Below the pieces are notes generated by a model. The model was not told the DNA's origin. It searched no databases and saw only the letters and a list, made by a program, of their open reading frames with translations. Shown here piece after piece: positions 2,509 through 31,549 of a DNA stretch of 64,000 nt (the first letter of the stretch is position 1; each line of letters begins with the position of its first letter). The DNA is from a virus: positions 49,295 through 113,294 of IMG/VR virus record IMGVR_UViG_3300025010_000004. One strand, given 5' to 3'. The translations under genes and the position numbers were made by a program.

Positions 2509-2524
2509 GTAGAACAAGTTCTAC
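2509..2524. promoter_or_regulatory. GTAGAA-N4-TTCTAC palindrome
   Basis: GTAGAACAAGTTCTAC, intergenic, upstream of RBS. Confidence 0.8.
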
Positions 2525-2538
2525 CTTCCCAACAGTGG

Positions 2539-3108
2539 TTAATGTTTATTCCTGTTTCCTCCGAAGTAGACCTTTTGATAGGCACGCTCCGCGCGCCAAG
2601 GCTCTACTTTTTCTTTAGCCGGTCTTTCCTTAACAGGAACACCAACCTTTTTGACTGCTGCGCTTATGGAACTCTTTTCTTTTTCTGGTTCTTTTACATC
2701 ATGAAACTCGTTGTACGCTTTTACCGCCTGCTTGAACCGATCATAGGTTTCTTTGCCAAGCTCGAACGATACTTTTCCTACATCGCTAGGACGAAACAAA
2801 AGAACTACACAGGTTCGATAGTGCAGACCTGGCTCATATTCACTAATTCTACCAAGCTCCAGAGAATACAAGTTAAGAGCATCTTCACCCTCAACTTTGT
2901 GGTTGAACACCTTAGACTTGTCGTTAAAATTTTCACCAAAATGAGTCTGTTCGGTTATAGTCACCTTAACGGTTTCAAATAACGGAGGTGTTATTTCCGC
3001 CTTATATTTTATGTGTCTTCTAACTTTTTTAGTAACAAAAGCACCTGTAACCCATTCGTACCGTTCAGGGTAAGTCTCTCCCTCATGGTAGGTGTAGTAT
3101 TTATACAT
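2539..3108 (-). CDS. EQTH-family paralog 5 (N- and C-terminal extensions)
   Basis: RHIKY..VTITEQTHFG..FKQAVKAYNEF. Confidence 0.8.
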   Translation of the reverse strand: MYKYYTYHEGETYPERYEWVTGAFVTKKVRRHIKYKAEITPPLFETVKVTITEQTHFGENFNDKSKVFNHKVEGEDALNLYSLELGRISEYEPGLHYRTCVVLLFRPSDVGKVSFELGKETYDRFKQAVKAYNEFHDVKEPEKEKSSISAAVKKVGVPVKERPAKEKVEPWRAERAYQKVYFGGNRNKH

Positions 3109-3119
3109 TTTAGCCCTCC

Positions 3120-3383
3120 CTATGTAAAGATGTAGCCACTAATTTTCAACAGCGCCCTACAGGATTTACATAGGTCCGAAAAAGAAGATACCTCTTCTCC
3201 ATTTTCGTCTGCGTCGCCGACAGTGGCTCCATCGTCTGAATAGTAACTTCCTTTACAGCACCAACATCCTTTCTTGTCGGAGTGCTCTCTGCCATTAACC
3301 CTTTCAACGAATGGGTCTTCTGATGTTTCTCCTACTTCTAGGATTGGGTTTTCCTTGTTAAATTTATTAAGATCAAAGTCCAT
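3120..3383 (-). CDS. hypothetical protein with Cys pairs (possible Zn binding)
   Basis: CWCC and CKSC. Confidence 0.6.
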   Translation of the reverse strand: MDFDLNKFNKENPILEVGETSEDPFVERVNGREHSDKKGCWCCKGSYYSDDGATVGDADENGEEVSSFSDLCKSCRALLKISGYIFT

Positions 3384-3423
3384 TTTACCCCCGTAGAAAC
3401 GTTTTAAGTTAGTTAAGGCTACC

Positions 3424-4017
3424 TTACCCTTTATCTGAAAATAAGTCCAGTTGTAGCTCAGATTTGGGCTCCTCAGCTATGGTTTCTTTTTCTATGACAG
3501 GGGCAATATAGTCCTCTATCTTAAATTTCTTAGCTGCGGTCTTTAGAGGAGGCGAATATCCCCAACTTAACGGTTTTTCCTGCGCCAGAAATTTGGACAA
3601 TTTGAGCTTAGGCATGCGGGGCACGGTCAAATCTTTTTTGTCGTACATGTAAATTTTACATGCGTTAGCTATGCTGTCCTCCATAGAGCCTCTAGTAACC
3701 AGGAGATTTAGCCTCTCTGCTTCTATGAAAATGGCCCACATATCACGCTTGAAATCAGCGCGTATTGCTTCAGGCACGTAATCGTAACTGCATACCCACA
3801 ATTTACACTGCAGTGCCTTTACAGTGCATCCCCCAATCCCAAGGTATTTACAGTTAACGCAGCAGAAGTTTTCTCCTTCCCTTCTACGATGACGCTCGCA
3901 AGCTCCGCCGCTAATATGGCATGGATCGTAGTCAACCAGAAGTTGCAAAGTTCTATCATACAGATTGTTGAAAATAGGGATGAGCTTTTTAGCGTAGTCG
4001 TATTCTCCTACTGGCAT
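3424..4017 (-). CDS. Cys-rich hypothetical protein (possible Fe-S/Zn binding)
   Basis: PC..GAC..FCCVNCKYL...GCTVKALQCKLWVC; RBS AAGGAGG. Confidence 0.7.
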   Translation of the reverse strand: MPVGEYDYAKKLIPIFNNLYDRTLQLLVDYDPCHISGGACERHRRREGENFCCVNCKYLGIGGCTVKALQCKLWVCSYDYVPEAIRADFKRDMWAIFIEAERLNLLVTRGSMEDSIANACKIYMYDKKDLTVPRMPKLKLSKFLAQEKPLSWGYSPPLKTAAKKFKIEDYIAPVIEKETIAEEPKSELQLDLFSDKG

Positions 4018-4029
4018 GTAACACCTCCT

Positions 4030-4351
4030 TTAATCTTTGAAATACTCGTTGTATTCGTTAACCGCAGCTACTACCTCAGGCCAACGCGCAAATGGAATTG
4101 ACAGTTCGAAGTTATCTTCGTTTTTGTTATCTCCTTTGAGGAAAACATAATAGTGCTCACCTTCAAGAAAAGCCTCCGGCCTTCCCAAATCACTCATTAA
4201 TATGACTAGATTCGATGCCTTAAATTGATCTTCATATGCTCGGTCTTCGTAGGCACACCCGAACTCTTTATACACATGGGTCTGCTCTATTATTCTGACG
4301 CGCATTCTATCACCTTCGTCAGGCTTAGCTATCAGGCTTAATGTGCTTCAT
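4030..4351 (-). pseudogene. EQTH-family paralog 6 with a one-base insertion near the 5' end
   Basis: MKHIK (ATG 4351) is one base out of frame with LIAKPDEGDRMRVRIIEQTH...AAVNEYNEYF; could instead start at internal ATG 4305. Confidence 0.6.
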
Positions 4352-4361
4352 TCATGACCTC

Positions 4362-5738
4362 CTACTCGATGGTTATAAGGTACGTTCCAGTATCCTTTGC
4401 ATTATCTTTTTTGGTTGTCTTTGCCGGCGTGTTCTCGTAAGTTACAGCAGACACTTTTTCTTCGACTTTTCGCACAAGATCAACCTCGACCACACCTTTA
4501 GGCTTCACTCCCCTTCTAGCCTTCGGTTTAACCTCAGCCACTACTGCCGCTTCTTCTACCTTCTTTTTAGCTGCTGGCTTCTTAGTCACAACAGGCGGAG
4601 GTAGAACTTCTTCTACCTTTGGAGGCTCTACTACAGGTGCTTCAATTTTGTTTATATGTACAATCTTATTTCCAGGTATGTACCCCTTGTAGTTGTACGT
4701 GCTTCCTACACGGGTCCAATCTGCATGCTTACTGGCCAGCCCAAACACGAAGTCTCCAGCAGTTTCGTCGTAGCAAACAGAAAAGTCTTTACGTTGATTA
4801 TCACAATTAGGTAACGGGCACCAAGGAACTTTAACGTCACCAAGGGCTTCATGATAAACCGCAGGAACTCTGTAGTCGCAGAGAGTATCCATAGAGTATA
4901 ATTCAGTCTTTCCCTGTTTCTTCATGGCTTCGATTACCTGGGTTCTATATGCAGCCGATACGCATTTAACATCCCCATAATACGGGTATTCATCTTTGGC
5001 CATATTTTTACGGTATATCATCCACCTTGCGACTGGCTTTCCATCTACCATGAGATAGCAACCTTTAGCGTAGGGCTGGTAGTGATACCACGCAGAAGGG
5101 TAAACCCCAGTATCATCAGCCACTTTAGGCCAAACCTTTCGGCTAATGTCTCCCCAATAGTCGTTTCCGACTCCCATGCAAGAGCCAGGAACTTTGGTCT
5201 TGTACATTGTGTAGTAGTCTCTGACGGAGTTACATACCACTATCGCAGAAGGTAAGAAGCTGTCGGACACCATTTTGGCTAAATCTCTCACTTGTGCGTC
5301 TCCATAACCAAGCTCCTTTAAATTTGTGTAGTCAGCCACAAGTTTGGCGAATGTGGTAATCTCCCACTTTAACGCTAGCTTAACTGCTCGCTCTGGAGTT
5401 GCAAACCTAACCTCCGTCTTTGGGTCTTTCAGAATTTTGGTTATATATTCAAGCACGTCTTCTGCTTTGAAGTTAGCTTTAATGTTAGGGTATACCCTAA
5501 CCTTGTCGGGATCGGATTTTACAGGGAGGGCAAGGGGCATTTCCGGCTTTACTTTGTAGCCGTAGCCTGCTCCTTCAATAACACCTTTTATCTTCTTGGT
5601 GACATTTGCCTTTATCTTCGGCAATGTTATTGCAAGCCGGAGGAACTTTTCAGCAGGCTTACCCACAACTTCTTTTGACTTCTCTGCTGTCTCAGGTTTG
5701 AGTTTGCCGAGTGCGTCCTTGTAAAATTTAAGTGCCAC
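4362..5738 (-). CDS. hypothetical phage protein with SCM motif and Pro/Lys-rich tail
   Basis: 458 aa, GTG start with AAGGAGG RBS; GSCMG...YLMVDGKPVARWMIY. Confidence 0.8.
   Translation of the reverse strand: MALKFYKDALGKLKPETAEKSKEVVGKPAEKFLRLAITLPKIKANVTKKIKGVIEGAGYGYKVKPEMPLALPVKSDPDKVRVYPNIKANFKAEDVLEYITKILKDPKTEVRFATPERAVKLALKWEITTFAKLVADYTNLKELGYGDAQVRDLAKMVSDSFLPSAIVVCNSVRDYYTMYKTKVPGSCMGVGNDYWGDISRKVWPKVADDTGVYPSAWYHYQPYAKGCYLMVDGKPVARWMIYRKNMAKDEYPYYGDVKCVSAAYRTQVIEAMKKQGKTELYSMDTLCDYRVPAVYHEALGDVKVPWCPLPNCDNQRKDFSVCYDETAGDFVFGLASKHADWTRVGSTYNYKGYIPGNKIVHINKIEAPVVEPPKVEEVLPPPVVTKKPAAKKKVEEAAVVAEVKPKARRGVKPKGVVEVDLVRKVEEKVSAVTYENTPAKTTKKDNAKDTGTYLITIE
4601..4616. promoter_or_regulatory. 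GTAGAA-N4-TTCTAC palindrome (intragenic)
   Basis: AG-GTAGAACTTCTTCTAC-CT inside 4362..5738. Confidence 0.5.
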
Positions 5739-6020: not shown

Positions 6021-6182
6021 TTGACAAAATCAACTTTTTGTGGTATAATGCATTCATCGAGCCGTTAGGCGAAGATGAATGCTATAGGGTTTTAAGGTTA
6101 TGCCTTGCTGTATGCCTTGCTGTATGCTTTGCTTATGACCTTAACCCTGTGTCTACCCCGCCCGAAGGGCGGGAGGCGTTTT
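6021..6182 (+). promoter_or_regulatory. sigma70 promoter + conserved hairpin + 12-bp repeats (module copy 1)
   Basis: TTGACA-17-TATAAT, then GCATTCATC-GAGCCGTTAGGCGAA-GATGAATGC, about 3x TATGCCTTGCTG, hairpin CCCGCCC-GAA-GGGCGGG. Confidence 0.8.
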
Positions 6183-6191: not shown

Positions 6192-6207
6192 GTAGAACAT
6201 GTTCTAC
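6192..6207. promoter_or_regulatory. GTAGAA-N4-TTCTAC palindrome
   Basis: Perfect GTAGAACATGTTCTAC, contains the TAG stop of 6204..7739. Confidence 0.85.
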
Positions 6208-7739
6208 CGGCCAAGTAACCTTGCACGTATATCTGATAGGTTACCGTCAACCAACAGCACCCCGTCCTTAAATATTGGACGCAGTAGGTCAGTGCCAGCT
6301 GCCGCTATCATGTTTTGGTTGGCTATTGACAATCCATCAATAGCCTCAATACCTTCAGCAGTCTGGACTACAACAACCCTACCGGTCAATGACTTTTTGA
6401 TCTTGTCTGTATCAGTGGCAGGATCTTTGAAGATATTAACTTCCTTTCCTTTAATTACGCAGTGCGTTGACTTCATAGCGAAACCAAAGGTATCCCTAGT
6501 ATTGTATTGGTAGGTGTACGAACCTATACCAAATACAATATTTGTGGAAGCGAATCCTTTGCGCTTTAGGCGCTCGCAGATGTCTTTAGCCCTCTCAATG
6601 GTTATAGAGTCGCCGTAGATAGCGCCTATGTGGGGGTCAAGCTGCTTGTATCCTTTGCTGTTGATAGTGCCTCCGAAGGTATCCCACAGGATTTCTATGA
6701 GTCCTTTATAGGCGCTTTCACTACACTCCGGGTCAAACCTCTCAACATATACCTCGTAAGTGGAATAGTCAATCGTAGTGTTTAGCCCACAAATAATATC
6801 AGCAGGATCTCCAGAATCAGGACGGATTACAACTTTACCATCCCTAGCCATGATAATATCTTTGAGCTTAGGAAGAATATTGCTGGTAACATGCCACAAA
6901 TCCCAAGTATCAGATACGAGAGATACAATTCCCGTAGGATATACGTCTTGGATTAATCTACGAAATGTTTCATACTCATCTACTTTTCCTCCAGCGCAGA
7001 CTACGCTGTGCTCAGTCGCCGGAACGCTACAGCCCACCAATTCTTTTTCGATATTGGCGTTGTATTTATCCTCAAGATAAAGTATAGCCGGAATAGTGTC
7101 TGTTCCTACAAACGATAGCAAGTGCCCTGCCCCACTTACACAAGCTGCTTCTACGGCCCCCATACCCCGCATTGAGAAATCGTGCCCCTGGAACTGCACG
7201 AAGTCTGGCATATCAGAAGTTTCCTCAGCGTATCTAGAAAGAATTTTGTGATATTCATACGCGATAGTGGCACTTGTGGAACCCTGCCACATCTCACACG
7301 AGGCCAAGGTTTCAATGTAGTTGGTAAGCCAGCCGAATCGTGGGTCGGTATTCTCAACAGTAAGCATAGGAACCCTTAGTGGAACAAGCGTTCCCTCCGG
7401 GACCGCTTTTATCAACAAAGGAAGATGCCCAAGTTCATGTAGCGCTCTTATATGTGTAGTATCAGGTTCCGCCACGCCTAACGTGAATTTAATCACCCTG
7501 CCGTACTCTCCAGCAACTTCATCAACAGGACGGCTGAAGAAGTTTTCGTTAAAGAAGTCGATAAGCCAGTCTTTAACGAACCCCTGGAAGGAAAACGCCA
7601 CCACTTTGTCAACGAACTTAATCCTTGACGTGCGAGGAATCCATGTGCTGTACACAATCTCAGTTCCGTCAGGATACTGGTCCTTGTGTCCGATTTTGTA
7701 GAAATCACACAGTAACGTTGCAATTAGTCCTTTACGCAT
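6204..7739 (-). CDS. nadV: nicotinamide phosphoribosyltransferase family (Nampt/Namat-like)
   Basis: DFYKIGH..QYP, HDFSMRG, SVPATEHSV, VSDTWD, VIRPDSGDP, IYGDSIT, GIGSYTYQYNTRDTFGFAMK. Confidence 0.93.
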   Translation of the reverse strand: MRKGLIATLLCDFYKIGHKDQYPDGTEIVYSTWIPRTSRIKFVDKVVAFSFQGFVKDWLIDFFNENFFSRPVDEVAGEYGRVIKFTLGVAEPDTTHIRALHELGHLPLLIKAVPEGTLVPLRVPMLTVENTDPRFGWLTNYIETLASCEMWQGSTSATIAYEYHKILSRYAEETSDMPDFVQFQGHDFSMRGMGAVEAACVSGAGHLLSFVGTDTIPAILYLEDKYNANIEKELVGCSVPATEHSVVCAGGKVDEYETFRRLIQDVYPTGIVSLVSDTWDLWHVTSNILPKLKDIIMARDGKVVIRPDSGDPADIICGLNTTIDYSTYEVYVERFDPECSESAYKGLIEILWDTFGGTINSKGYKQLDPHIGAIYGDSITIERAKDICERLKRKGFASTNIVFGIGSYTYQYNTRDTFGFAMKSTHCVIKGKEVNIFKDPATDTDKIKKSLTGRVVVVQTAEGIEAIDGLSIANQNMIAAAGTDLLRPIFKDGVLLVDGNLSDIRARLLGR

Positions 7740-8550
7740 CTCTTTTTACCTCCGTATAAAGTTGGTGTATGATAAGATTTTCTAGAGCAGTTGAATTACA
7801 CATTATGCTGTTTGTAGTATATACTTCGTCTATTAACTTTGATGTAAATATTTTCCCTGAGAATATAGTGTGCTCACAATGAGCAACCATAAGGTAAATA
7901 TTCGCAGCGCCATGGGATTTAAGCGCCTCGGCTGCCGCAATAAAAGTTCCGCCTTTGGAGCATAGATCGTCTACTATCAGAACTTTTTTACCTTTTACAC
8001 CTGTGCCTGACACAGAGTATTTTATGATATCACCAGTCTTGAAATCCCTTTCCTTGCTACCTACAGCGGAAGGATACCTTGCAACGTGACTATATCTCTT
8101 CTCAGCTCCTGCATCTGGGTAGAAAAGTATGGTGTTGTCCATTCCGTGCTTATCAACAAAGAGGGCCATGAGGGCTGGTATAATACTAATGTTTGTACAC
8201 CGGTTTAGAAGAGCAGTAGAAACGTCGGAATGTGCGTCAACTACTTTAACTCTCGCAAAGTGCATTGCGTTAATCATATCGCATATGTACTTTAAGTTGA
8301 AAGTGTATGTGTTGTTGGCTCTGTCCATTCTGCTGTACGGCATGTACAGAATCTTCAACGTCATTATGTTGTTCGGAATAACGTCATTCATGTAACTGCG
8401 AAGTATGTACAAGTCCATAAGGTCTTGATCGGTTTCGAACTTTAGTACAACAACTGAGCTGTTGTGAAAAGTTATCTTATTGTAGTTCAGGTATCTTTCG
8501 TTGTTAGGAAAAACACCGAACTCAACTTTTACATTGTCAATTAAAATCAC
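7732..8550 (-). CDS. prs: ribose-phosphate pyrophosphokinase family (Prs/Adps-like)
   Basis: FPNNE, YMPYSRMDR, DAHS, PDAGA, K.RD, IVDDLCSKGGTF; overlaps nadV start. Confidence 0.9.
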   Translation of the reverse strand: MILIDNVKVEFGVFPNNERYLNYNKITFHNSSVVVLKFETDQDLMDLYILRSYMNDVIPNNIMTLKILYMPYSRMDRANNTYTFNLKYICDMINAMHFARVKVVDAHSDVSTALLNRCTNISIIPALMALFVDKHGMDNTILFYPDAGAEKRYSHVARYPSAVGSKERDFKTGDIIKYSVSGTGVKGKKVLIVDDLCSKGGTFIAAAEALKSHGAANIYLMVAHCEHTIFSGKIFTSKLIDEVYTTNSIMCNSTALENLIIHQLYTEVKRDA

Positions 8551-8573: not shown

Positions 8574-8589
8574 GTAGAACATGTTCTAC
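8574..8589. promoter_or_regulatory. GTAGAA-N4-TTCTAC palindrome
   Basis: Perfect copy, contains stop of 8586..8879. Confidence 0.85.
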
Positions 8590-8879
8590 TTATGCATTTC
8601 TTCGTAGTATCCTATGATTGGAGTGGTTATCGCAACGAACACTAGCCCAAAGATAGCTGAGCAGAACCCTAGAGACACGACTTCCTTTACGGTAGATATA
8701 TCCATTACGAAGTAGGCCACTAGCAGGCCTATCCAGAAACACTGGCAGAACGCGCAGTTATTTAGGAACCTTGTAGGAGTGGTTTTACTCATTAGTTTAG
8801 TCAGCCAACGCATGTGCTTGTGCTGAAACAGGAAGAACTGAACCCCTAATACGGTTAGTAGGAAAATACAGAATAACAT
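8586..8879 (-). CDS. small membrane protein with CxxC..W motif (DUF1360-like)
   Basis: 3 hydrophobic segments, CAFCQCFW. Confidence 0.6.
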   Translation of the reverse strand: MLFCIFLLTVLGVQFFLFQHKHMRWLTKLMSKTTPTRFLNNCAFCQCFWIGLLVAYFVMDISTVKEVVSLGFCSAIFGLVFVAITTPIIGYYEEMHK

Positions 8880-8888: not shown

Positions 8889-9977
8889 TTATTCTTTCGC
8901 TTTTATATTTAGCACAGGTTTTATGAAATCAACTACATCAATAGTAATACCCTCCTGCGCCTTCATGACGTAGTTAATGTCTTTGTATGCCTCTGGAGCC
9001 TCATCTAGTATGCTCCTATCTGTGGAACAAACAACGCCTTCCATCTGGCCTACGAATTTATCGTAGTCAAGATTCTTCTTGGCGGCGTTTCTGCCCATAG
9101 TTCGTCCACACCCGTGAGACGCCGATGAAAGAAACTTTTCATTACCAAGTCCTTTGGTGATGTACACACCATCCCTCATATTAGCAGGAATTATGCCAAG
9201 TTGATGTGCGTCGGCTGGCGTAGCACCTTTTCGGTGCAGCACTCCTTCTTTTGTAATAATTGCGTGGTTATGGTTTTCGTTAATTAGAAGATTGCTCTTG
9301 TATGTGACACCGAGAATCTTACATATTTTGTTTATCATTTTTAACCTGTTATATAACGCCCACTCTAACGCAAAATTCATATCCCCTAAGTAGGACAACC
9401 CAAGGTCTGATAATAAAGGAAACATTCTTCCTTGTTTCATGTACCACCCGCCTATTGTATGCCCAACGTTACGACTTCCTGAATGAATAGTCACACAATA
9501 CGTGCCAGTATTTTGGCTTATCCCTATCTCTATGAAGTGATTGCCCCCTCCTAGAGTACCTAGCTGCATAACAGATTTTTCTTTTACTCTCTGTTTCACT
9601 TCTTTAGGCATGTGAGAGTGGATAACATATTCAAAATGATAGTCTGACTTATCAAGAGATGAAAATCCAGTAGGGATGGTTTTAACTATATCATCGTATA
9701 ACTGTTTAAGGTTATCCTTTGATAGCTCATACTGAGGTATGTTTGTGTCAACCGAGCACATACCACATCCCACGTCGAAGCCTACGAAGCTAGGAGAGAT
9801 CATGCCGTCAAGCAAGGCCACTCCGCCGATTGGAAGATCATAACCAGCGTGAACGTCAGGCATAATAGCCAATTTTTTAAGACATTCCAATGAAAGAACG
9901 TCATAAATCTGCTGCTGCGCTGACTGCTCTATTTCTTCCATCGGCACCATAGACTGTAGTTTGTCAAGCTTGCTCAT
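8889..9977 (-). CDS. rtcB: RtcB RNA ligase
   Basis: MPDVHAG, VGFDVGCG, GTLGGGNHFIE, HSGSR, HNHA, HRKGAT, SASHGCGR, DEAPEAYKDI. Confidence 0.95.
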   Translation of the reverse strand: MSKLDKLQSMVPMEEIEQSAQQQIYDVLSLECLKKLAIMPDVHAGYDLPIGGVALLDGMISPSFVGFDVGCGMCSVDTNIPQYELSKDNLKQLYDDIVKTIPTGFSSLDKSDYHFEYVIHSHMPKEVKQRVKEKSVMQLGTLGGGNHFIEIGISQNTGTYCVTIHSGSRNVGHTIGGWYMKQGRMFPLLSDLGLSYLGDMNFALEWALYNRLKMINKICKILGVTYKSNLLINENHNHAIITKEGVLHRKGATPADAHQLGIIPANMRDGVYITKGLGNEKFLSSASHGCGRTMGRNAAKKNLDYDKFVGQMEGVVCSTDRSILDEAPEAYKDINYVMKAQEGITIDVVDFIKPVLNIKAKE

Positions 9978-11292: not shown

Positions 11293-12639
11293 TCACTTTA
11301 ACGCCGCCTTCATTCTTGCGACGGCCTCTTTCTTTCCAAGGACGTGCATTACATTTACTACAGGAGGCGAAGCTGTTTTACCTGTGAGAGCCATGCGTAT
11401 TTGCGGTCCGAGTTCTTTTAGCGTTACGTTATGTTTTTTACAGCCGTGGCTAATGGCCTCTTCTATATCTTCTATAGAATAGGTCTTTTTCTTCTCAAGT
11501 ATTTCCACTATGGAACCTACTGAATGATCGGCCCTTACCGCTTTAGGCTTTTTGTAATACACCTCAGCCATTTCTGCAATCTCAATTAAAGTCTTTGCCC
11601 TCGGCTGCAACAACTTCACAACCTCAATAATATCAGGGCCTTTGTCAGTTTTGTAGTGCATGAACGGCTTGGCTTGTTCCGCTATTCTCTTGGGATCGCC
11701 GTTCTTAATCCAATGCGCGTTAATGTGCAGCATTTTGTTCGGATCAAGACACCCTGGCGCTCTACCTACCGAATTAAGCGAGAACTTTTGTATCAGGTCG
11801 TCCATTGAGAATATTTCTTCATTCTTGTAGCTCCAGCCTACACGGGCAAGCCCATTGACAACAGCCTCCGGAAGAAAACCTTTATCCCTGTAGTCAAGGA
11901 CAGAAGCATCACCGTTTCTCTTACTGAGTTTTTCGCCTTTATCATTAAGGATGAACGGGGTGTGGGCATATTCAGGAACCGGAAAGCCAAGCGCCTGATA
12001 CAGCATAGTCTGGGCTGGCACGTTGCCTACTCCGTCAACGCCTCGGACAATATGTGTAACACCCTGTAGGGCATCATCAACCATATTTGCAAGGAGGTAT
12101 CCTACGCTTCCGTCCTGCCGTTGGATTACGAAGTCGCTGATCTCGCTGTTCTTCACGCTGATCTTTCCGAGAACATGATCTTTCCATTCTACGCGGCCCT
12201 GGTCTTGGGTCTTAAACCGTATGACGAATGGCTTTCCTTCTTGCTCTGGCTTTTCATAGCAGGTTCTATCGTAGAGGGGCTTTTGCTTGTTCCTCAGCAT
12301 TTCATCCCTTTTTGCTGTGAGTTCTTCTGCCGTGCAGTAACACTTGTAGGCTTTTTTCTCTTTCAGGAGTTTATCTACGTATTCCTTGTAGATGTGACCT
12401 CGTTCGCTTTGGTAGATTATTTCTACGTCACTTTTGATGCCAAGCCAGTTGAGCCCTTCTAAAATGTTGTCTGCGAACTCTTGGGTAGATCTTGAAAAAT
12501 CGGTATTCTCAATACGCACGATAAAAGTTCCTTTATGTTGCCTAGCAAAAATATAATTATGCAAACTCTGGCGGGCCATCCCACAGTGCCCTGGGCCGGT
12601 GTTAGATGGTGCTACGCGGCATACAATAGGTTTAGTCAT
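11293..12639 (-). CDS. gltX: glutamate--tRNA ligase (divergent)
   Basis: RVAPSNTG.HCGM, RIENTD, YQSER, AYKCYC..YDRTC, VDD..HIVRG, KLSKR, anticodon domain IRMALTG...P; start at MTKPIV. Confidence 0.92.
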   Translation of the reverse strand: MTKPIVCRVAPSNTGPGHCGMARQSLHNYIFARQHKGTFIVRIENTDFSRSTQEFADNILEGLNWLGIKSDVEIIYQSERGHIYKEYVDKLLKEKKAYKCYCTAEELTAKRDEMLRNKQKPLYDRTCYEKPEQEGKPFVIRFKTQDQGRVEWKDHVLGKISVKNSEISDFVIQRQDGSVGYLLANMVDDALQGVTHIVRGVDGVGNVPAQTMLYQALGFPVPEYAHTPFILNDKGEKLSKRNGDASVLDYRDKGFLPEAVVNGLARVGWSYKNEEIFSMDDLIQKFSLNSVGRAPGCLDPNKMLHINAHWIKNGDPKRIAEQAKPFMHYKTDKGPDIIEVVKLLQPRAKTLIEIAEMAEVYYKKPKAVRADHSVGSIVEILEKKKTYSIEDIEEAISHGCKKHNVTLKELGPQIRMALTGKTASPPVVNVMHVLGKKEAVARMKAALK

Positions 12640-12669
12640 AATTAAATTCTCCTTTGTGTTAGTTTGTAA

Positions 12670-12685
12670 GTAGAACATTTTCTAC
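12670..12685. promoter_or_regulatory. GTAGAA-N4-TTCTAC palindrome
   Basis: AA-GTAGAACATTTTCTAC-TT upstream of gltX RBS. Confidence 0.75.
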
Positions 12686-12723: not shown

Positions 12724-12774
12724 TACATATAGGAGCAGTTGGATTCGGCTCAAATAACTTATACTGGAGACGCG

Positions 12775-14031
12775 ATGAACCATTTTTACGTTTACTGCTA
12801 CACAAACCCAACAAAACCTGGAAGGTTCACTTTCCCTAATACAAATCTTTCTTTTCTATATGAACCTTTTTACATCGGTAAAGGTGCTTTAGATAGGATG
12901 TATAATCATGTTAATGAGTCAATTAAAAAGAAAAATAAAACATGGAAAAATAAAACAATTTTATCTATATTAGAATCTGGGTACAATCCTAAAGACTTTG
13001 CATTTAAGCTGGCTGTACAATTAACAGAGGAGGAGGCATACTCAGTAGAGGAAACGTTAATAGCCACTATCGGCAGGCTGTCTACTAGAAAAGGCCCACT
13101 ACTTAATATACGAACTGGCGGGTTAGGGAGTAGTAATAAAAGTTATTGGAAAACAACTAATAAACTAACCCCAATACAAGAATACGAATGTGTATCTTTA
13201 TACTTAAATGGTGAATCTATTAGTACATTATCAGCTAGGTTTGGGTTATTTAAAACCGCCATCCGAGGTATATTACTACGGCACGATGTAACAATAGTAC
13301 GTAAACCCACAGAAAAAAGAAGCAAGACTTTAAGTCTCATCCCAAATATTCTAGAAGACTACGAAAACGGTATGTCATCTATAAAAATAGGACAAAAATA
13401 CTGTATATCAAAACGCACTGTATTATCAGAGCTTAGGAAAGCAGGAGTAACTATGAAAGAGCCTGCTTTCTATAAGACTATAAAAGATGAAGATGTACCT
13501 AATATAAGAGCCGCCTTTTTACGTGGAGAACGTGTAGAAGCTTTGGCCAAAAAATATAAAGTATCCACTAATACTATAAATAGGGCTATTCGTTATAATG
13601 AAGTAGTAACAGCAACTGGAAAATTAAAAATTAAAACTAACATTACCAGGCATAACCTGCTTAAAAAACTAACCGAAGACCAAGAATATCAACTAGGTCA
13701 AGACTACATAGCTGGTATGTCATCTAGTGAATTAGCAGCAAAGTATAACGTTTTCTACACAACAGCCCTAGCAATTTTGAAACGACTCAACATACAAACT
13801 AGGCCTAGTTCAACACCAGACAAAACAACAATTGACCTAACACCAGAAGTTATAGAAATGTACCAGTCAGGACTAAGCTCTCTCGATATATTCAGAAAGT
13901 TGCCAGTAAGTCGCAACACAATTTTACGCATTCTTCACAGAAATAATGTACCACTTAGGCAAAGTGGAAAGCAGCCTACTAAGGTTATAGGTAGTAGTGA
14001 TGCAGAAGAACTTGATGCTATGATGCAATAG
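12775..14031 (+). CDS. GIY-YIG-like free-standing homing endonuclease with several C-terminal HTH-like repeats
   Basis: FYVYCY..PFYIGKG..R..H..E..LI..IGR..GPLLN; repeated Y..G.S...(L/I)..KY; opposite strand, AT-rich. Confidence 0.8.
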   Translation: MNHFYVYCYTNPTKPGRFTFPNTNLSFLYEPFYIGKGALDRMYNHVNESIKKKNKTWKNKTILSILESGYNPKDFAFKLAVQLTEEEAYSVEETLIATIGRLSTRKGPLLNIRTGGLGSSNKSYWKTTNKLTPIQEYECVSLYLNGESISTLSARFGLFKTAIRGILLRHDVTIVRKPTEKRSKTLSLIPNILEDYENGMSSIKIGQKYCISKRTVLSELRKAGVTMKEPAFYKTIKDEDVPNIRAAFLRGERVEALAKKYKVSTNTINRAIRYNEVVTATGKLKIKTNITRHNLLKKLTEDQEYQLGQDYIAGMSSSELAAKYNVFYTTALAILKRLNIQTRPSSTPDKTTIDLTPEVIEMYQSGLSSLDIFRKLPVSRNTILRILHRNNVPLRQSGKQPTKVIGSSDAEELDAMMQ

Positions 14032-14821: not shown

Positions 14822-14837
14822 GTAGAACTTGTTCTAC
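14822..14837. promoter_or_regulatory. GTAGAA-N4-TTCTAC palindrome
   Basis: GTAGAACTTGTTCTAC, 2 bp after a stop codon. Confidence 0.8.
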
Positions 14838-16978: not shown

Positions 16979-16994
16979 GTAGAACAAGTTCTAC
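16979..16994. promoter_or_regulatory. GTAGAA-N4-TTCTAC palindrome
   Basis: GTAGAACAAGTTCTAC upstream of lemA RBS. Confidence 0.8.
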
Positions 16995-20102: not shown

Positions 20103-20118
20103 GTAGAATATGTTCTAC
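20103..20118. promoter_or_regulatory. GTAGAA-N4-TTCTAC palindrome
   Basis: GTAGAATATGTTCTAC, 2 nt from the cca RBS. Confidence 0.8.
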
Positions 20119-21543: not shown

Positions 21544-21559
21544 GTAGAACAAGTTCTAC
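21544..21559. promoter_or_regulatory. GTAGAA-N4-TTCTAC palindrome
   Basis: Contains stop of 21556..21891. Confidence 0.8.
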
Positions 21560-21891
21560 CTGTTAACTATAGTGTTGTAAAGTTCATCCGGCGTCAGTTC
21601 TCTGTACCTTCCAGTAGGGTTAGCGCTATGTATATTCTCATATTCAAACATACGAGGCTGCGCACATATTTCAACAGCTGATACTTTAGCAGCCTCAATT
21701 GTGTCCTCCAAATCCTGATCGTCGCCGGACAGTGTGGTAATGTACTTACCGATCATGTCCTTTTGCATCTTAACAGCGCAGTCACGTTCGTACTGCGTAA
21801 CTAGGTGGCTCTCCATGCGCCAGATAGGAGTATCATTTGAGCACCCTTGCACCATAACTGATACTGCTAAGATTAAAATAAATAGTTTCAT
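21556..21891 (-). CDS. putative lipoprotein
   Basis: Signal peptide + VQGC. Confidence 0.65.
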   Translation of the reverse strand: MKLFILILAVSVMVQGCSNDTPIWRMESHLVTQYERDCAVKMQKDMIGKYITTLSGDDQDLEDTIEAAKVSAVEICAQPRMFEYENIHSANPTGRYRELTPDELYNTIVNR

Positions 21892-22232
21892 ATCCTCCCC
21901 TTCGCTATCGCCTTAGATAATTCAAGGGTTGACAAATTCCTACTAGCAACCCTACGCCGCATGGAATTGGCTACAATTTGGGCACGGAAATTGGACGGCT
22001 CGGTATGGTCGTAGTTATTATTCACGTAAATCTCGCAGCCTCTTACTGTTACAGTTACATACTGCCCAGCCAGTGCATGAGACACATGACTCGGTTTATG
22101 AACAGGAGGATTGCAAATATCACAGATTGATTTCTTTGAAGGTGTTCCACATCTTTGGCACGTCATGGCCCCGCTCAAATTCTTGATGATAACATCATCT
22201 CTCACTGAATAGTCAAGCGCAATTGTTTCCAT
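21888..22232 (-). CDS. hypothetical protein with zinc ribbon
   Basis: CQRC..CDIC. Confidence 0.65.
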   Translation of the reverse strand: METIALDYSVRDDVIIKNLSGAMTCQRCGTPSKKSICDICNPPVHKPSHVSHALAGQYVTVTVRGCEIYVNNNYDHTEPSNFRAQIVANSMRRRVASRNLSTLELSKAIAKGRI

Positions 22233-22261: not shown

Positions 22262-22277
22262 GTAGAACAAGTTCTAC
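22262..22277. promoter_or_regulatory. GTAGAA-N4-TTCTAC palindrome
   Basis: GTAGAACAAGTTCTAC. Confidence 0.8.
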
Positions 22278-23788: not shown

Positions 23789-24058
23789 CTACCCCTTTAC
23801 AAGTTTTAGCTTAGGCTTCCTTATCCACCATATACGGTGTGCGGTACGCCTAGCCTTTGCCTCGTCCTTCTTATTCTCAGTTAGCCACTTAACGCCCAAA
23901 CACTTCTTATGGATTATTATGTCCTTGTAGTCAGGCTGCTTGACATACACCATATCAGAGCAGTTCCCAACCTGGCCACACCCGTTACACCTAACCTGCT
24001 TCTTATCATCTTCTATTTCAAACCATGTCGTAACTTCAACTTTGTCTTTGGCTTTCAT
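23789..24058 (-). CDS. hypothetical protein (CxxC..HxxC)
   Basis: 89 aa, GAGGTG RBS. Confidence 0.65.
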   Translation of the reverse strand: MKAKDKVEVTTWFEIEDDKKQVRCNGCGQVGNCSDMVYVKQPDYKDIIIHKKCLGVKWLTENKKDEAKARRTAHRIWWIRKPKLKLVKG

Positions 24059-24075: not shown

Positions 24076-24091
24076 GTAGAAGATGTTCTAC
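24076..24091. promoter_or_regulatory. GTAGAA-N4-TTCTAC palindrome
   Basis: GTAGAAGATGTTCTAC, contains stop of a small ORF ending DKLYDR*. Confidence 0.75.
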
Positions 24092-24901: not shown

Positions 24902-25354
24902 TTACCACTTTAGGATAGGAGTATACCCGAGCGACTTTATCTCAGACATTTCTTCCTCAGTGGGAATGCCTACGTACAAGTTAGTGTTATACGAACACAA
25001 CTCACGCATTCTCTTCGCTATAGCAGCATCATACTTCCACACTGTATAGATTCCATCGGCGAGCATCACAAGCACATAGCTTGCTCTTGTTAACTCAAGC
25101 ACCGGATCTACGTTGTGGGCTATTACTTTCAGAATGTTAAGGTGTGCCTCAGCAACCTCAGTAGTCTCTGCCAAACCCCCGTGAAAGTTGGCTGAAAGAA
25201 CTACTGTAAAGTCTGGGATGTGCAACAAGGCGTCTGCCTGCCACATCCTACCCTTAGCCTTAGGCGCTCCAGGAACCATCTTGAGATGAGAAGCAACCCT
25301 CGCCCCTCTAAGTAGTAGCGACTGGTAGTAATTTGGATGCTTTTGGACGTTCAT
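24902..25354 (-). CDS. hypothetical protein
   Basis: 150 aa, AAAGGAG RBS. Confidence 0.7.
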   Translation of the reverse strand: MNVQKHPNYYQSLLLRGARVASHLKMVPGAPKAKGRMWQADALLHIPDFTVVLSANFHGGLAETTEVAEAHLNILKVIAHNVDPVLELTRASYVLVMLADGIYTVWKYDAAIAKRMRELCSYNTNLYVGIPTEEEMSEIKSLGYTPILKW

Positions 25355-25372: not shown

Positions 25373-25388
25373 GTAGAATATGTTCTAC
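25373..25388. promoter_or_regulatory. GTAGAA-N4-TTCTAC palindrome
   Basis: Contains stop of 25385..26077. Confidence 0.8.
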
Positions 25389-26077
25389 TTCGCTATAATT
25401 AAACTAACAGCGTTGTCCGCTATAGCAGTAAAATCTATAGTGCATTCCGCCGCCGCCCTCGCCGCCGCGCTCGCCGCGCTCGCCGCCCTCGCCGCCGCCT
25501 CCGCCGCGCTCGCCGCCCATCCCGCCTCCGCCGCCCTCGCCGCCGCCTCCGCCGCCCTCGCCGCCCATCCCGCCTCCGCCGCCCTCGCCGCCCATCCCGC
25601 CCCCGCCGCCTCCGCCGCCGCCCCCGCCGCCTCCTTGGAAGGGGTTATAGCGTATTGTTTAGCAGCGTTTATTGCTTCTCTAACGCGCGTATCTGAAGGG
25701 CGTGTGTCTTCGAATACACTAAGTACTGACTCAGCGCAAAGCGCCGCAAACATAGTTCTTACTTGTGCATCAATAGCGCTACCTACCCACGTAGGAGAAC
25801 TTAGTTCACGTAAGGTGGTAAGTTTAAAGCACCCGACTTTACCAAAATCACTACACACTACTTTACCGGAAGCTTCCCATAGTCTAGGACTGTGTATGTT
25901 AGCGTGTATAGGATTGAGAAGGAATGCTAAGGTTGCGTTACTATAAGCGTGTAACACATCTGATGAGCAAAGACTGGGGTTGTCTTTTTTATTTTTCTTA
26001 TGGGTGACATTTTCGCCCCAGACTGTTGTTTTGTGGTAAGTTGTGTTGTCCTGTTCAGTTAGTTTGAAAAGTTTCAT
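25385..26077 (-). CDS. Imm5-like helical protein with Ala-rich repeat
   Basis: FA..CAE.VL..FE...P.D.R.R.AI.AA followed by (A/E/R/W/S)AA repeats. Confidence 0.7.
   Translation of the reverse strand: MKLFKLTEQDNTTYHKTTVWGENVTHKKNKKDNPSLCSSDVLHAYSNATLAFLLNPIHANIHSPRLWEASGKVVCSDFGKVGCFKLTTLRELSSPTWVGSAIDAQVRTMFAALCAESVLSVFEDTRPSDTRVREAINAAKQYAITPSKEAAGAAAEAAGAGWAARAAEAGWAARAAEAAARAAEAGWAASAAEAAARAASAASAAARAAAECTIDFTAIADNAVSLIIAK
25447..25634 (-). repeat. GCG-rich low-complexity coding repeat
   Basis: GCG GCG NNN units, extremely GC-rich against an AT-rich background. Confidence 0.9.
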
Positions 26078-26091: not shown

Positions 26092-26107
26092 GTAGAATAT
26101 GTTCTAC
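26092..26107. promoter_or_regulatory. GTAGAA-N4-TTCTAC palindrome
   Basis: GTAGAATATGTTCTAC, 2 nt from RBS. Confidence 0.8.
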
Positions 26108-27067: not shown

Positions 27068-27083
27068 GTAGAACATGTTCTAC
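27068..27083. promoter_or_regulatory. GTAGAA-N4-TTCTAC palindrome
   Basis: Perfect copy, contains stop of 27080..27319. Confidence 0.85.
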
Positions 27084-27319
27084 TTACTACAAAACTGCCT
27101 AACTGCATTAACTACTTTGACGTAGGCGTAGCCTGTGAAGTAATTGTTGGCCACTTCTTTCAGAAACTTCTTGGACGGAGCTGTGGTAACGTCCATCTTT
27201 AGGTGCGCAGACAACGCACTCTTGAATTCTTCATCCGTCATTTTACCATCAACGAACTCTCTCATTATCTGCTTGGTCATTGGTTGACTCATGGCCTTAT
27301 CCCCATGCTCATAAAACAT
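27080..27319 (-). CDS. hypothetical protein
   Basis: 79 aa, probable start MSQPMT. Confidence 0.6.
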   Translation of the reverse strand: MFYEHGDKAMSQPMTKQIMREFVDGKMTDEEFKSALSAHLKMDVTTAPSKKFLKEVANNYFTGYAYVKVVNAVRQFCSK

Positions 27320-28293: not shown

Positions 28294-28309
28294 GTAGAAC
28301 ATGTTCTAC
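28294..28309. promoter_or_regulatory. GTAGAA-N4-TTCTAC palindrome
   Basis: AG-GTAGAACATGTTCTAC-CT. Confidence 0.85.
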
Positions 28310-28550: not shown

Positions 28551-28775
28551 TTAACAGTATTTACCATCCAAAGGGATGAATGTGACTATGTTTCTAGCGC
28601 CGTCTGGGATATGTTGAAAGTAATCTTGAAGACAGCACACCCAGGCCTCTTCTGTGGTTTTGCTAATACCATGTCCTGGCGTTCTCCAATATCCTTTATC
28701 AGTAATGTATATGTGCCCTTTAGTTTCTAAGGGAAGGGCTTTAATTTCTTCTTGGGTTAGTGTTTGAGGTGGCAT
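28551..28775 (-). CDS. hypothetical protein
   Basis: 74 aa, AGGAG RBS. Confidence 0.65.
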   Translation of the reverse strand: MPPQTLTQEEIKALPLETKGHIYITDKGYWRTPGHGISKTTEEAWVCCLQDYFQHIPDGARNIVTFIPLDGKYC

Positions 28776-28804: not shown

Positions 28805-28820
28805 GTAGAACATGTTCTAC
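28805..28820. promoter_or_regulatory. GTAGAA-N4-TTCTAC palindrome
   Basis: Perfect copy next to the 12-bp array. Confidence 0.85.
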
Positions 28821-28856
28821 CTTTAGGGTAACATGTAAGGTAAGGTAACTTACCGT

Positions 28857-29016
28857 TAATATATCTGTTAACCTTTGAGGTAACATGCAAGGTAACATGC
28901 AAGGTAATATATCTGTTAACCTTTGAGGTAACATGCAAGGTAACATGCAAGGTAACATGCAAGGTAACATGCAAGGTAACATGCAAGGTAACATGCAAGG
29001 TAACATGCAAGGTAAC
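28857..29016. repeat. 12-bp tandem repeat AGGTAACATGCA (iteron-like)
   Basis: 7 perfect copies at 28926-29009 plus 2 earlier copies inside a duplicated 48-bp unit. Confidence 0.95.
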
Positions 29017-29372
29017 GCACTAACTAACCTATCCGTTAACCTTTAAGGTGATGATTAAGGTAATAACCCCAAATCCTACCGACCCTCGGTTTCCCCAAAC
29101 ATTATATAGAATATCAATAATAACAAAGTTTATGGGGGTTATGAAACACTACCTTCACCCAAAACAACCAAAACATAAATCCAATTCTCCCCATACCGCC
29201 TTGCCATATGTGATTTCAACTACTTAGCAACTACTCTCAAGGTCATTTTCAAGGCCACATTCCAGCAATTTTAGGTGCCTCTATTGCCACCTGGGAGTTG
29301 AAACCCAACCGTCCGGAATGTGACCTTGAAAGTGACCTTGAAGGTTATCTTTTAAAAACCTTCAAGGTCAAG

Positions 29373-29388
29373 GTAGAACATGTTCTAC
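29373..29388. promoter_or_regulatory. GTAGAA-N4-TTCTAC palindrome
   Basis: Perfect copy. Confidence 0.85.
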
Positions 29389-29413
29389 CCACCGAAAATC
29401 AACTCCACCTCCG

Positions 29414-29563: not shown

Positions 29564-29587
29564 TTGCTTCCCTCCTAGGTTTGTGAG

Positions 29588-29603
29588 GTAGAACATGTTC
29601 TAC
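29588..29603. promoter_or_regulatory. GTAGAA-N4-TTCTAC palindrome
   Basis: Perfect copy, contains stop of a small TM ORF ending KPTTKR*. Confidence 0.85.
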
Positions 29604-30103: not shown

Positions 30104-30119
30104 GTAGAACATGTTCTAC
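30104..30119. promoter_or_regulatory. GTAGAA-N4-TTCTAC palindrome
   Basis: AAG-GTAGAACATGTTCTAC-CTT (22-bp palindrome). Confidence 0.85.
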
Positions 30120-30375
30120 CTTCATAGCTTCTGTTTTAAGGCGCAAAAAAGCCGATCTAACGCAATTATAGGTCAGTACCTGGGCATGGATACCCAAGAT
30201 ATGGCTATAGTGGTTAGAATCGGCTTGTGGCTTTTTCATAGTTAATTTCCTTATAGCCCTTGTTTCGGCTATTTAGTGTATGTGGTTTATGCTTCAAATT
30301 TGACTTGTAAGGTAATTTGATTAATCACCTTAGCATGAGCTAGAGTAACTAATCAAGTGACCTTACAGGCATGGT

Positions 30376-30416
30376 TAAGGTGCCTGTAAGGTGCCTGTAA
30401 GGTGCCTGTAAGGTGC
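30376..30416. repeat. 11-bp tandem repeat TAAGGTGCCTG x3.7
   Basis: Read directly; inverted copy at 30361-30371. Confidence 0.9.
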
Positions 30417-30420
30417 ATAT

Positions 30421-30615
30421 TTAGGTGGTCAGGTCGATGTATTGACCACAGTTAGTCAGGCAAAAGTCAAGGTTAACGTGGTCAGGATTAACACCTGCTT
30501 TCAATTCAAAGACTTCATGTGCATAGAGGCACTGGCACTGCATATGCTCATAGTGCGTACATAGCGTACAAACTTTACGTGTACGCGCATTTTCATCGGC
30601 GATAATTCTAGCCAT
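30421..30615 (-). CDS. small Cys/His-rich protein
   Basis: MARII start with AAGGAG RBS; CTLCTH..CQC. Confidence 0.6.
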   Translation of the reverse strand: MARIIADENARTRKVCTLCTHYEHMQCQCLYAHEVFELKAGVNPDHVNLDFCLTNCGQYIDLTT

Positions 30616-30668
30616 GGTTAATGCTCCTTTGCTACGTTCTTTTCTACGTAGCACGCTCAAATTTAGCT

Positions 30669-30730
30669 TCTAAAGGCTTTTCTAAAGGTCACTGGTATAG
30701 ATACTAGTAACCTTTAGAAAAGCCTTTAGA
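30669..30730. repeat. 30-bp near-perfect inverted repeat
   Basis: TCTAAAGGCTTTTCTAAAGGTCACTGGTAT-AG-ATACTAGTAACCTTTAGAAAAGCCTTTAGA. Confidence 0.85.
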
Positions 30731-30762
30731 CTGCCATATCGACAGCCTAAAGGCCCTTGTTG

Positions 30763-31476
30763 TTAGCCGTTAACCGCTTCTGCCTCCGGCTTTTCTTCTG
30801 CAGGAATAGCGCCTTCTTTAGCTTTCAGCTCCCTCTGCTTTTTCTCTTTTTCGGCCTTTTCAGCGTCAAGATCTGGACGCAACGCGTCTGCTATGGCGGT
30901 CAATGCCGGTTTGATTTCTTCCTTCAGCTCCGGTGACAGAAGCGCCGATTCTTCAAGCACTTTCAATGCAGCAAAGACCTTTGCAAGGTTCTTTTCGTGT
31001 TCCGTAGCGATAGGAGCAAAGGCGGGTTTTTTAGCCTTTACTACTTCGCCGGTAGTTTCATCCTTTACCGGCTCGCCGTCTTTCATTAGCACTTCTTCCG
31101 TAAAGTAAAGGTCGGTTATATTCCGGTCGATGTATTGCTGTAAAGCTTTCAGGCCGGAAGCGCGCTTGTTACCGTGCTTTATTGCTGCGGTAGTCCAGCT
31201 GTAAAACTTTGCCGGATTGTTGGGGTTAACGGTGCGGTGTTCTTCCGGAAAGGTATCATAGATGCGCTGTACGAAAAGCACTGTGTTTGCTTTTCCCGTC
31301 GAATAATCGGTAGTCATCGGGAAAATCGGTTTAAACATTTCAAACAATTCCTTGCTTCCCTCGTTAATTGCGTCAATCCCCTTGGAGAGGTTAAGCGCCT
31401 TTTCTGACGCGATTTTCCCCATTTCAATGAGGTTGACTGCCGCTGAACCTACAAGAATTTCCGCTGTGTTTGCCAT
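30763..31476 (-). CDS. hypothetical protein, first gene of the leftward arm
   Basis: 237 aa, AAAAGGAG RBS, charged C-terminus. Confidence 0.8.
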   Translation of the reverse strand: MANTAEILVGSAAVNLIEMGKIASEKALNLSKGIDAINEGSKELFEMFKPIFPMTTDYSTGKANTVLFVQRIYDTFPEEHRTVNPNNPAKFYSWTTAAIKHGNKRASGLKALQQYIDRNITDLYFTEEVLMKDGEPVKDETTGEVVKAKKPAFAPIATEHEKNLAKVFAALKVLEESALLSPELKEEIKPALTAIADALRPDLDAEKAEKEKKQRELKAKEGAIPAEEKPEAEAVNG

Positions 31477-31533
31477 GGTGATAACTCCTTTTCTGTTGTC
31501 TGCTTTTGGCAGGGTATTCGCTTCCCGTTATGA

Positions 31534-31549
31534 GTAGAACATGTTCTAC
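31534..31549. promoter_or_regulatory. GTAGAA-N4-TTCTAC palindrome (rightmost full copy)
   Basis: Perfect copy. Confidence 0.85.

Follow-up and report, generated by a model that had tools for sequence, protein, structure and literature searches.

Genome-wide palindromic repeats have been reported in phages, and the Cluster O mycobacteriophages carry a 17-bp dyad repeat (TGTTCGG-N3-CCGAACA in Corndog, 34 copies) of unknown function that is mostly not tied to predicted promoters and for which a dimeric binder, itself unknown, has been predicted (PMC4351075). The Cluster A mycobacteriophages (L5 gp71 and relatives) have a second type of network, the stoperators, about 30 sites that lie in short intergenic gaps and block elongating polymerase (PMC6550527). 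The present analysis concerns a palindrome, GTAGAA-N4-TTCTAC, that recurs in IMG/VR virus record IMGVR_UViG_3300025010_000004, henceforth referred to as G000 (113,294 bp, with a 127-bp terminal overlap). The window is a stretch of 64,000 nucleotides (nt) of this record, genome positions 49295–113294, and coordinates are those of the window unless marked as genome positions. In the phiC31 repressor inverted repeats and the RK2 KorA/KorB operators, one palindromic operator stands in many intergenic places and is read by one dimeric regulator. The T7, T3 and SP6 promoters are self-contained elements of ~20 bp before gene blocks, with positions that are kept and a sequence that differs between relatives, and T4-type PeSL cassettes are flanked by an element in which a sigma-70 early promoter is joined to a stem-loop. 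The nearest published case is the Cluster O repeat; what is new in G000 is the lineage, the tight coupling of the palindrome to stop codons and Shine-Dalgarno (SD) sequences and, above all, the full replacement of the motif among sister phages that share their host-type promoters.

The window contains 21 exact copies of GTAGAA-N4-TTCTAC, while 100 dinucleotide-preserving shuffles of the window contained 0. Twenty copies had been located by a sequence-only reading, and each of its coordinates proved to be an exact match. The additional copy, at 52312–52327, corrects its statement that the motif is confined to the early arm, with none in 32–64 kb, which is nearly true genome-wide: 28 of 30 sites lie in the non-structural arm (genome 92.2 kb down to 14.6 kb) and 2 in the structural arm. 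The total of 30 was obtained by a motif scan of the full phage, as that reading had proposed, and comprises 29 exact copies and one copy at genome 31829 with a variant centre, CATGCATG, where duplication of CATG adds 4 central bases. CATG is indeed the commonest centre but falls short of the majority previously described (9/21 copies in the window, 14/29 in the genome). A search of the window with a tolerance of 2 mismatches yielded just 3 extra sites against a chance expectation of 4, so all 12 arm positions are effectively invariant, as had been claimed. The positional count likewise agrees with the extended symmetry seen earlier in the flanks (A-R-GTAGAAC-AT-GTTCTAC-Y-T), and a position-by-position count from -60 to +60 around the G000 sites showed no conservation beyond this extended palindrome. 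Site density rises toward the gene-poor region, again as noted before, with a peak of 7 sites at 28.3–31.5 kb. The exact 16-mer gave 11 single matches in 2.9 million viral contigs, about the estimated chance number, and the exact 18-mer was found once each in 9 unrelated bacterial genomes among 185,579 species genomes (596 billion bases), about the estimated chance level. The motif did not occur as a word in 8.4 million papers.

Composition skew and open reading frames (ORFs) place the genes of window 1–42.9 kb on the minus strand and the structural genes, from 43.3 kb, on the plus strand; upstream and downstream are therefore read from right to left in the former region. In the transcribed direction, the order at the sites is stop codon of the upstream gene, palindrome, SD sequence and start codon. 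The TAG of the motif is itself the stop codon of the upstream gene at 6 sites in the window and 10 genome-wide by our gene calls; such sites had been described earlier, although at least seven had been counted in the window. At most other sites the upstream stop lies 1–5 nt before the palindrome. Where a gene follows, its start codon lies mostly 11–45 nt beyond the palindrome with a strong, AGGAGG-type SD sequence in between, and the spacing previously described was borne out by motif-to-start distances of 13–57 nt. The distance from site to SD sequence ranges from 0 to more than 40 nt. About 26 of the 30 G000 sites are intergenic, just before an SD sequence, and about 27 are at gene junctions of the non-structural arm. 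Among gaps of 25–60 nt in the arm, 11 of 21 hold a site, whereas gaps shorter than 25 nt hold none. In six long gaps the site keeps close to the stop of the upstream gene, even where the next gene is as much as 600 nt away. A plus-arm copy at genome 7791 shows the same layout relative to a plus-strand gene.

The six sites whose TAG ends the upstream gene are 6192–6207 (nicotinate phosphoribosyltransferase (NAPRTase) gene 6204–7739, minus strand), 8574–8589 (gene 8586–8879, minus strand; 23 nt before the start of 7732–8550, minus strand), 21544–21559 (gene 21556–21891, minus strand; next start 26 nt on), 24076–24091 (an ORF of 43 amino acids (aa); 17 nt before the start of 23789–24058, minus strand), 25373–25388 (gene 25385–26077, minus strand; 18 nt before the start of 24902–25354, minus strand) and 29588–29603 (a 36-aa ORF; next start 24 nt on). 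The orthologue of gene 24902–25354 in the sister phage G001 likewise follows a copy of the G001 palindrome, and the same holds for the G001 orthologue of the glutamyl-tRNA synthetase (GluRS), whose minus-strand start in G000 lies 30 nt beyond site 12670–12685; this site is also 53 nt before a plus-strand gene with GIY-YIG and helix-turn-helix (HTH) domains. Close before minus-strand starts are also 16979–16994 (22 nt before 16333–16956), 20103–20118 (16 nt before the CCA-adding enzyme, 18710–20086), 22262–22277 (29 nt before 21888–22232) and 28805–28820 (29 nt before 28551–28775, and just downstream, in the transcribed sense, of a 12-bp tandem array). Site 14822–14837 is 2 nt past a stop with the next start 40 nt on, and 26092–26107 is 14 nt away from both the preceding stop and the following start. 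Site 2509–2524 (centre CAAG in the plus-strand reading) follows the stop of gene 2539–3108 (minus strand) by 14 nt, and 27068–27083 comes directly after the TAA of ORF 27080–27319 (minus strand), with the next gene ~200 nt away. Site 28294–28309 is within the gene-poor zone, 29373–29388 lies 25 nt after a stop with ~600 nt without an ORF beyond, and 30104–30119 is in the 3' end of a 50-aa ORF with ~390 nt without an ORF beyond. Site 31534–31549, which transcription of the arm meets first, stands 57 nt before a gene for a 237-aa protein, whose orthologue in the sister phage G004 is likewise preceded by the G004 palindrome. Site 4601–4616 (centre CTTC) had been described as intragenic and does fall in a 458-aa ORF (4362–5738, minus strand), at aa 375–380; the G004 orthologue of this ORF aligns to residues 1–363 only, which places the site just beyond the conserved part of the protein. 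In the structural (plus-strand) arm, 52312–52327 is inside the 3' end of ORF 51796–52371, 44 nt before the start at 52372.

Collinear IMG/VR relatives with ~50% protein identity were available for comparison, namely G001, its close kin G005, and G004, along with the small fragments G002 and G003; all except G003 are from IMG/VR sample 3300025030. A terminase profile search found no relatives beyond these same sisters, and a metagenome scan with a CCA-enzyme profile found nothing closer than 41%. GTAGAA-N4-TTCTAC is not above chance in the sister phages. G001 carries 26 copies of AAATWGGT-AATT-ACCWA, G005 has 13 copies of the G001 palindrome in 64 kb, and G004 carries CTTCCGA-YRYR-TCGGAAG in 19 exact and 12 one-mismatch copies. 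All versions have 7–8-bp arms, a 4-bp centre and the order stop, site, SD. In each phage, palindrome density peaks in a gene-poor zone rich in repeats immediately after the early block, and 1–2 copies are in the structural arm. Orthologues with a site in one phage tend to have one in another (G000–G001, odds ratio 8.3, p = 0.018; G001–G004, odds ratio 32, p = 0.005; G000–G004, p = 0.12), and the 122-aa gene before the DNA polymerase is preceded by a site in G000, G001 and G004. Positions that are kept while the sequence is wholly replaced would be expected if a phage-encoded reader had changed its specificity and the sites had followed. No palindrome network was found in the first 50 kb of T5.

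A host-type promoter family, CTTGACAAA-N11-TGTGnTATAAT, is present in about 12 perfect copies in G000, with a partly conserved spacer. These promoters were located at 42987, 38165, 35892 and 35612 on the minus strand, at 6021, 29791, 43046 and 43198 on the plus strand, and at genome 26467, 36166, 36249 and 44380. The same family is present in G001 and G004; since it is common to all three phages, the difference between their palindromes does not stem from the host polymerase. Host-type promoters head both arms and occur often in the palindrome-free initial 10 kb of the non-structural arm, and a palindrome and a host-type promoter almost never occur at one junction. A TRTG box ahead of the -10 element is typical of Gram-positive promoters and, together with the strong SD sequences, hints at a host among the Bacillota (Gram-positive). 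The palindromes themselves are not sigma-70/sigma-A promoters, as -35/-10 hexamers 16–18 bp apart were absent inside them or at a fixed distance, and promoter-like matches are not enriched near them. They are also not rho-independent terminators, with no T run behind them on the transcribed strand, where a scan identified 6 true terminators of which none coincides with a site. The early (first) block is closed by strong terminators at genome 84939, 83265 and 81881, and a terminator at genome 80016 follows the first palindrome-preceded gene.

Compared with the Cluster O repeat, G000 shows a similar number of copies (~30), invariant inverted arms and a variable centre, and in both cases the copies are denser toward one genome end and the phages are not obviously temperate (PMC4351075). 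The G000 palindrome differs in sequence, in its 4-nt centre, in lineage and in the probable host phylum. About one third of the Corndog sites are intragenic and unlinked to starts, in contrast to the ~26/30 intergenic sites before SD sequences in G000, and all five Cluster O phages have one common motif whereas the sisters of G000 each differ. The Cluster A stoperators resemble the G000 sites in being many, in lying in short intergenic gaps mostly away from promoters, and in a motif that differs between related phages, in their case in step with the repressor (PMC6550527). The analogy to L5 stoperators drawn by the sequence-only reading holds for placement but not for symmetry and apparently not for lifestyle: a stoperator is an asymmetric 13-bp site that follows the orientation of transcription and binds the immunity repressor of a temperate phage, while the G000 site is palindromic and no tyrosine integrase and no repressor-like HTH over the cut-off were found in G000. 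The other analogy then proposed, to parS-type sites, was not supported, as ParB was not found in G000. In a test for parS/KorB-type systems, the ParB family PF02195 was absent from G000 and G001, and the sole match was a ParB N-terminal-like domain in G004 (73719–73898, minus strand; 27.7 bits, over the cut-off) inside a 1774-aa tape-measure ORF. The phiC31 and RK2 operators share the repeated intergenic palindrome with G000 and differ in their proximity to promoters, their known binders and their temperate phage or plasmid setting. Unlike the T7, T3 and SP6 promoters, which are asymmetric and need a phage polymerase, the G000 element is palindromic, and no such polymerase was detected with a model that matched no control genome either. 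Unlike the T4 PeSL element, the G000 sites have no attached promoter, and indel breakpoints between G001 and G005 coincide with sites at about the rate of random junctions.

We tentatively favour the reading that the palindrome is the duplex-DNA docking site of a phage-encoded, two-fold symmetric (dimeric) protein, probably one specific to each phage, gating transcription of the non-structural arm, which we consider plausible rather than probable. Such a dimer would bind the palindromes on double-stranded DNA, and one protein could gate the arm segment by segment, because the ~27 junction sites share the order stop, site, SD and stand apart from the host-type promoters. The likeliest mode would be a block of RNA polymerase arriving from either side (a symmetric "stoperator"), which would serve timed shut-off or insulation in lytic growth. 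Binding to duplex DNA is suggested by G004, in which the six central positions read RYRYRY in 27/31 sites with 17 different hexamers; this pattern is symmetric under reverse complement without self-pairing, which suits a two-fold reader of duplex DNA and is meaningless in a hairpin loop. A dimeric DNA-binding protein was among the options of the sequence-only reading and is the best supported of them, given the replaced palindromes in the sisters, the weak G001 hairpin described below and the symmetry of the G004 centre, although the cognate regulator was not identified. The flanks of the sites are symmetric within noise in G000 and A-skewed on the upstream side in G001 and G004, a skew that we explain by TAA stop codons that run directly into the palindrome.

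That the sites block transcription instead of starting it is inferred from five features that together rank a roadblock or operator above a phage-specific promoter. The convergent junction of the arms carries a site in G001 (79106) and G004 (58874), where no gene begins on either side, and is occupied by an ordinary bidirectional terminator in G000. In G000, G001 and G005, the site behind the conserved 291-aa gene has a terminator-like hairpin immediately after it, the G000 hairpin being weak and below the calls of the stringent terminator scan. The remaining features are the sites beside upstream stops in the long gaps, the pairs of sites just 40–49 bp apart in G004 and G001, and the directionless palindrome itself.

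Several observations weigh against this reading. The binder was not found: six-frame searches returned no convincing HTH_3, HTH_17, MarR or ParB match in G000. The model of the 237-aa protein (30763–31476, minus strand), the first gene product behind the first site and a candidate binder by position only, has a predicted local distance difference test (pLDDT) score of 85 and no convincing fold match, as only its C-terminal helical hairpin, a common arrangement, gave matches (Z up to 8). The CATGCATG variant would misplace the half-sites for a rigid dimer, and as RNA it forms a longer perfect hairpin of -13.6 kcal/mol. Several sites are near the next start yet far from any stop. No host-type promoter with at least 11/12 matches was found on the transcribed strand from genome 84906 to 44380, i.e. 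36 kb of the arm, and this gap, together with the terminators closing the early block, fits a promoter role better. Additionally, the roadblock networks known to us belong to temperate phages, whereas G000 looks lytic.

The palindrome could instead be a self-contained, phage-specific (middle) promoter, at which a phage factor redirects host RNA polymerase to start in or at the end of the 20-bp site, much as T7-type promoters serve their own polymerase. This explanation is possible but doubtful. The sites lie 11–45 nt before start codons, even inside the end of an upstream ORF (52312), the transcribed strand lacks recognisable host-type promoters over 36 kb, and the first site comes after terminators that end the early block. 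Kept positions with a replaced sequence recall the T7, T3 and SP6 promoters, T5 has a similar number (some thirty) of host promoters at the corresponding junctions, and every sister encodes a conserved small protein resembling sigma region 4. However, the palindrome gives no direction, and sites occur at convergent junctions without a gene to start and directly before terminator-like hairpins at a conserved junction. Neither a T7-like polymerase nor sigma region 2 was found by six-frame family searches, the polymerase result being weak because the model matched no control genome. The sigma-like gene lies where a late activator is usually found, ahead of the small terminase gene, but the late genes have 1–2 sites only, and the 40–49 bp spacing in G004 and G001 looks like that of operator clusters.

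At the RNA level, the palindrome would be an mRNA hairpin between cistrons, through which a phage RNA-binding protein or nuclease processes, stabilises or translationally gates each cistron. Every version has 7–8-nt arms and a 4-nt centre, the sites adjoin the stop codon just 5' of the SD sequence, and the hairpins are stable in G000 (-5.7 to -9.2 kcal/mol) and G004 (-10.6 kcal/mol), with z about -5; the doubled-centre variant, as noted, folds longer still. We nevertheless judge this option, which the sequence-only reading had also raised, to be unlikely and weaker than a DNA site. The commonest G001 site reaches only -1.4 kcal/mol as RNA, equal to shuffled sequence. The arms are invariant without compensatory or wobble variation, since the one-mismatch sites of G004 mostly differ at the outermost base and only 1/12 carries a G-U change; the purine/pyrimidine symmetry of the G004 centre would have no meaning in a loop, and the distance to the SD sequence is too loose for one translational operator. 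The sites might also be recombination linkers, or a mobile element of the repetitive extragenic palindromic (REP) type, that shuffle gene cassettes among phages of this type, a proposal of the earlier reading that a comparison of breakpoints makes very unlikely. G001 and G005, which are 86–95% identical and have a common motif, differ by 25 indels or replacements. In three of these a breakpoint falls 21 nt or less from a site, among them the cassette for nicotinamide adenine dinucleotide (NAD) salvage, which is present in G000 and in G005 (right after a G005 site) and absent from the near-identical G001, and 9/100 breakpoints are within 30 nt of a site as opposed to 1.2 for random positions. 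The other 22/25 events are away from sites, and because ~13% of junctions carry a site, 3/25 is the level of random junctions. No REP-type transposase was found, the Y1 (IS200/IS605-type) transposase PF01797 of REP-associated systems (REP/RAYT) being absent from G000, G001 and G004; 16–20 bp is short for homologous exchange, and the substitution of one motif for another at the same junctions speaks for selection by a reader rather than for the spread of an element. Mimicry of a host regulator's operator is prompted by the core GAAC-N2-GTTC, which resembles the Gram-positive LexA (Cheo) box, GAAC-N4-GTTC. It is highly improbable, as the spacing is off by 2 bp, sisters with the same host-type promoter carry unrelated palindromes, and both the 18-mer in bacterial genomes and the 16-mer in viral contigs gave single copies only, the former at the estimated chance level. 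The distant likeness of G000 to T5 (large terminase, 30% identity) might suggest T5-style single-strand nick sites or other signals for replication or packaging, which is the least credible explanation of all. The T5 nick consensus is NPu-pGCGCN in the T5 annotation and the palindrome has no GCGC, no such network was found in the first 50 kb of T5, nicking of a palindrome would affect both strands, and placement at gene junctions points to gene expression.

Identification of the reader was attempted with Pfam, PHROGs and NCBIfam on about 60 proteins, and only a weak sigma-region-4 match (a 127-aa protein), a small-terminase-like HTH and the GIY-YIG/HTH nuclease were obtained. No cognate regulator was thus identified in the window by family searches, in agreement with the first impression that none was obvious. 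The 237-aa gene heads the site-dense zone in G000, G004 and G001, and its product is unusually divergent, with 24–26% identity between sisters and 13 homologues in 1.8 billion representatives. MarR-like matches to the model of this protein were not significant (E 0.6–1.5). The 127-aa protein (43291–43674, plus strand) has a sigma-70 region-4-type HTH and is conserved in all sisters. Its gene opens the structural arm, directly ahead of the small terminase gene; the G004 orthologue exceeds the Pfam cut-off for sigma region 4, and the recognition helix shows only moderate differences between sisters. Gram-positive phages usually encode their late activators at this position, and the 127-aa protein is probably a late-gene activator. 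The GIY-YIG nuclease (12739–14031, plus strand; 430 aa) contains about five HTH repeats and is encoded on the opposite strand inside the arm. It has 29–32% identity to its counterparts in the sisters, where it occupies other positions, and is therefore probably a free-standing homing endonuclease. A tblastn search of three conserved unknown proteins against phages gave no match, an ESM Atlas search with a 526-aa protein returned unnamed clusters only, and the model of a conserved 104-aa early protein (34249–34563; pLDDT 55) was unusable.

Taken at its broadest, the comparison would describe a lytic lineage in which a self-contained 20-bp palindromic element controls most non-structural genes, with an unrecognisable phage-encoded reader that switched specificity completely at least three times among sisters from the same sample, giving orthogonal protein–site pairs that start or stop host RNA polymerase at ~30 junctions. 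We regard this full picture as doubtful, if possible; to our knowledge, such palindrome-based temporal control has not been described for virulent phages. Should host polymerase be blocked or started at these sites, they would reveal the means by which a virulent phage that lacks its own polymerase times ~60 kb of genes, and would provide ready-made orthogonal protein–operator pairs. The G000 lineage also helps to ask what reads genome-wide palindromes of the kind reported in Cluster O, as it offers three collinear genomes with the same gene order and promoters and three unrelated palindromes at partly the same junctions. The reader should be findable as the protein whose sequence tracks the motif, and its function could be tested with swapped sites.

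G000 has no close cultured relative, and no close DNA relatives were found among 50,697 phage records. Its large terminase best matches T5-like phages, and its DNA polymerase has 27% identity to Vibrio and Bacillus phage polymerases. Replication genes of the arm form a T5-like set (family A polymerase, primase, two helicases, SbcCD-like nuclease, flap endonuclease and ligase), and further genes of the arm specify NrdD/NrdG, dUTPase, ClpP, RtcB, a CCA-adding enzyme, GluRS, NAD-salvage enzymes, PhoH and five tRNAs; an Rfam scan found tRNAs only. No tyrosine integrase was found in G000 by six-frame family search and no prophage relatives were found in the 185,579 species genomes, and G000 therefore looks virulent. 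GluRS (11293–12678, minus strand), the CCA-adding enzyme (18710–20086, minus strand), the RtcB RNA ligase (8889–9977, minus strand) and the five tRNAs look like a kit for tRNA repair and charging, perhaps directed against host anticodon nucleases. The NAD-salvage pair, a NAPRTase-family enzyme and a phosphoribosyl pyrophosphate synthetase (6204–8550, minus strand), has palindrome sites on both sides. In the early block, a protein with a NADAR (DarT1-associated antitoxin-like) domain (33144–33611, minus strand) may be the product of a counter-defence gene.

At 6021–6178 on the plus strand, a perfect promoter directed against the arm is followed ~130 nt later by a strong plus-strand terminator (6151–6178) that ends 14 nt before palindrome site 6192, so that both point toward this site from the other side. 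The unit, of which a second copy lies near genome 36249, probably specifies a small antisense or non-coding RNA. The gene-poor zone is filled with tandem arrays of 12-bp period (28857–29016, 30376–30416, 29316–29342 and 32341–32534; e.g. AGGTAACATGCA x 11.6), and the corresponding zones of G001 and G004 contain 12-bp arrays of their own. These arrays could be an origin, iterons or a region like the T5 injection stop. The idea of iterons shared with the palindrome was dropped, since the array resembles a half-site of the motif in G000 only and the arrays of the sisters are unlike their own motifs. The sequence TGGCAC-N5-TTGCA is present in 31604–32077.

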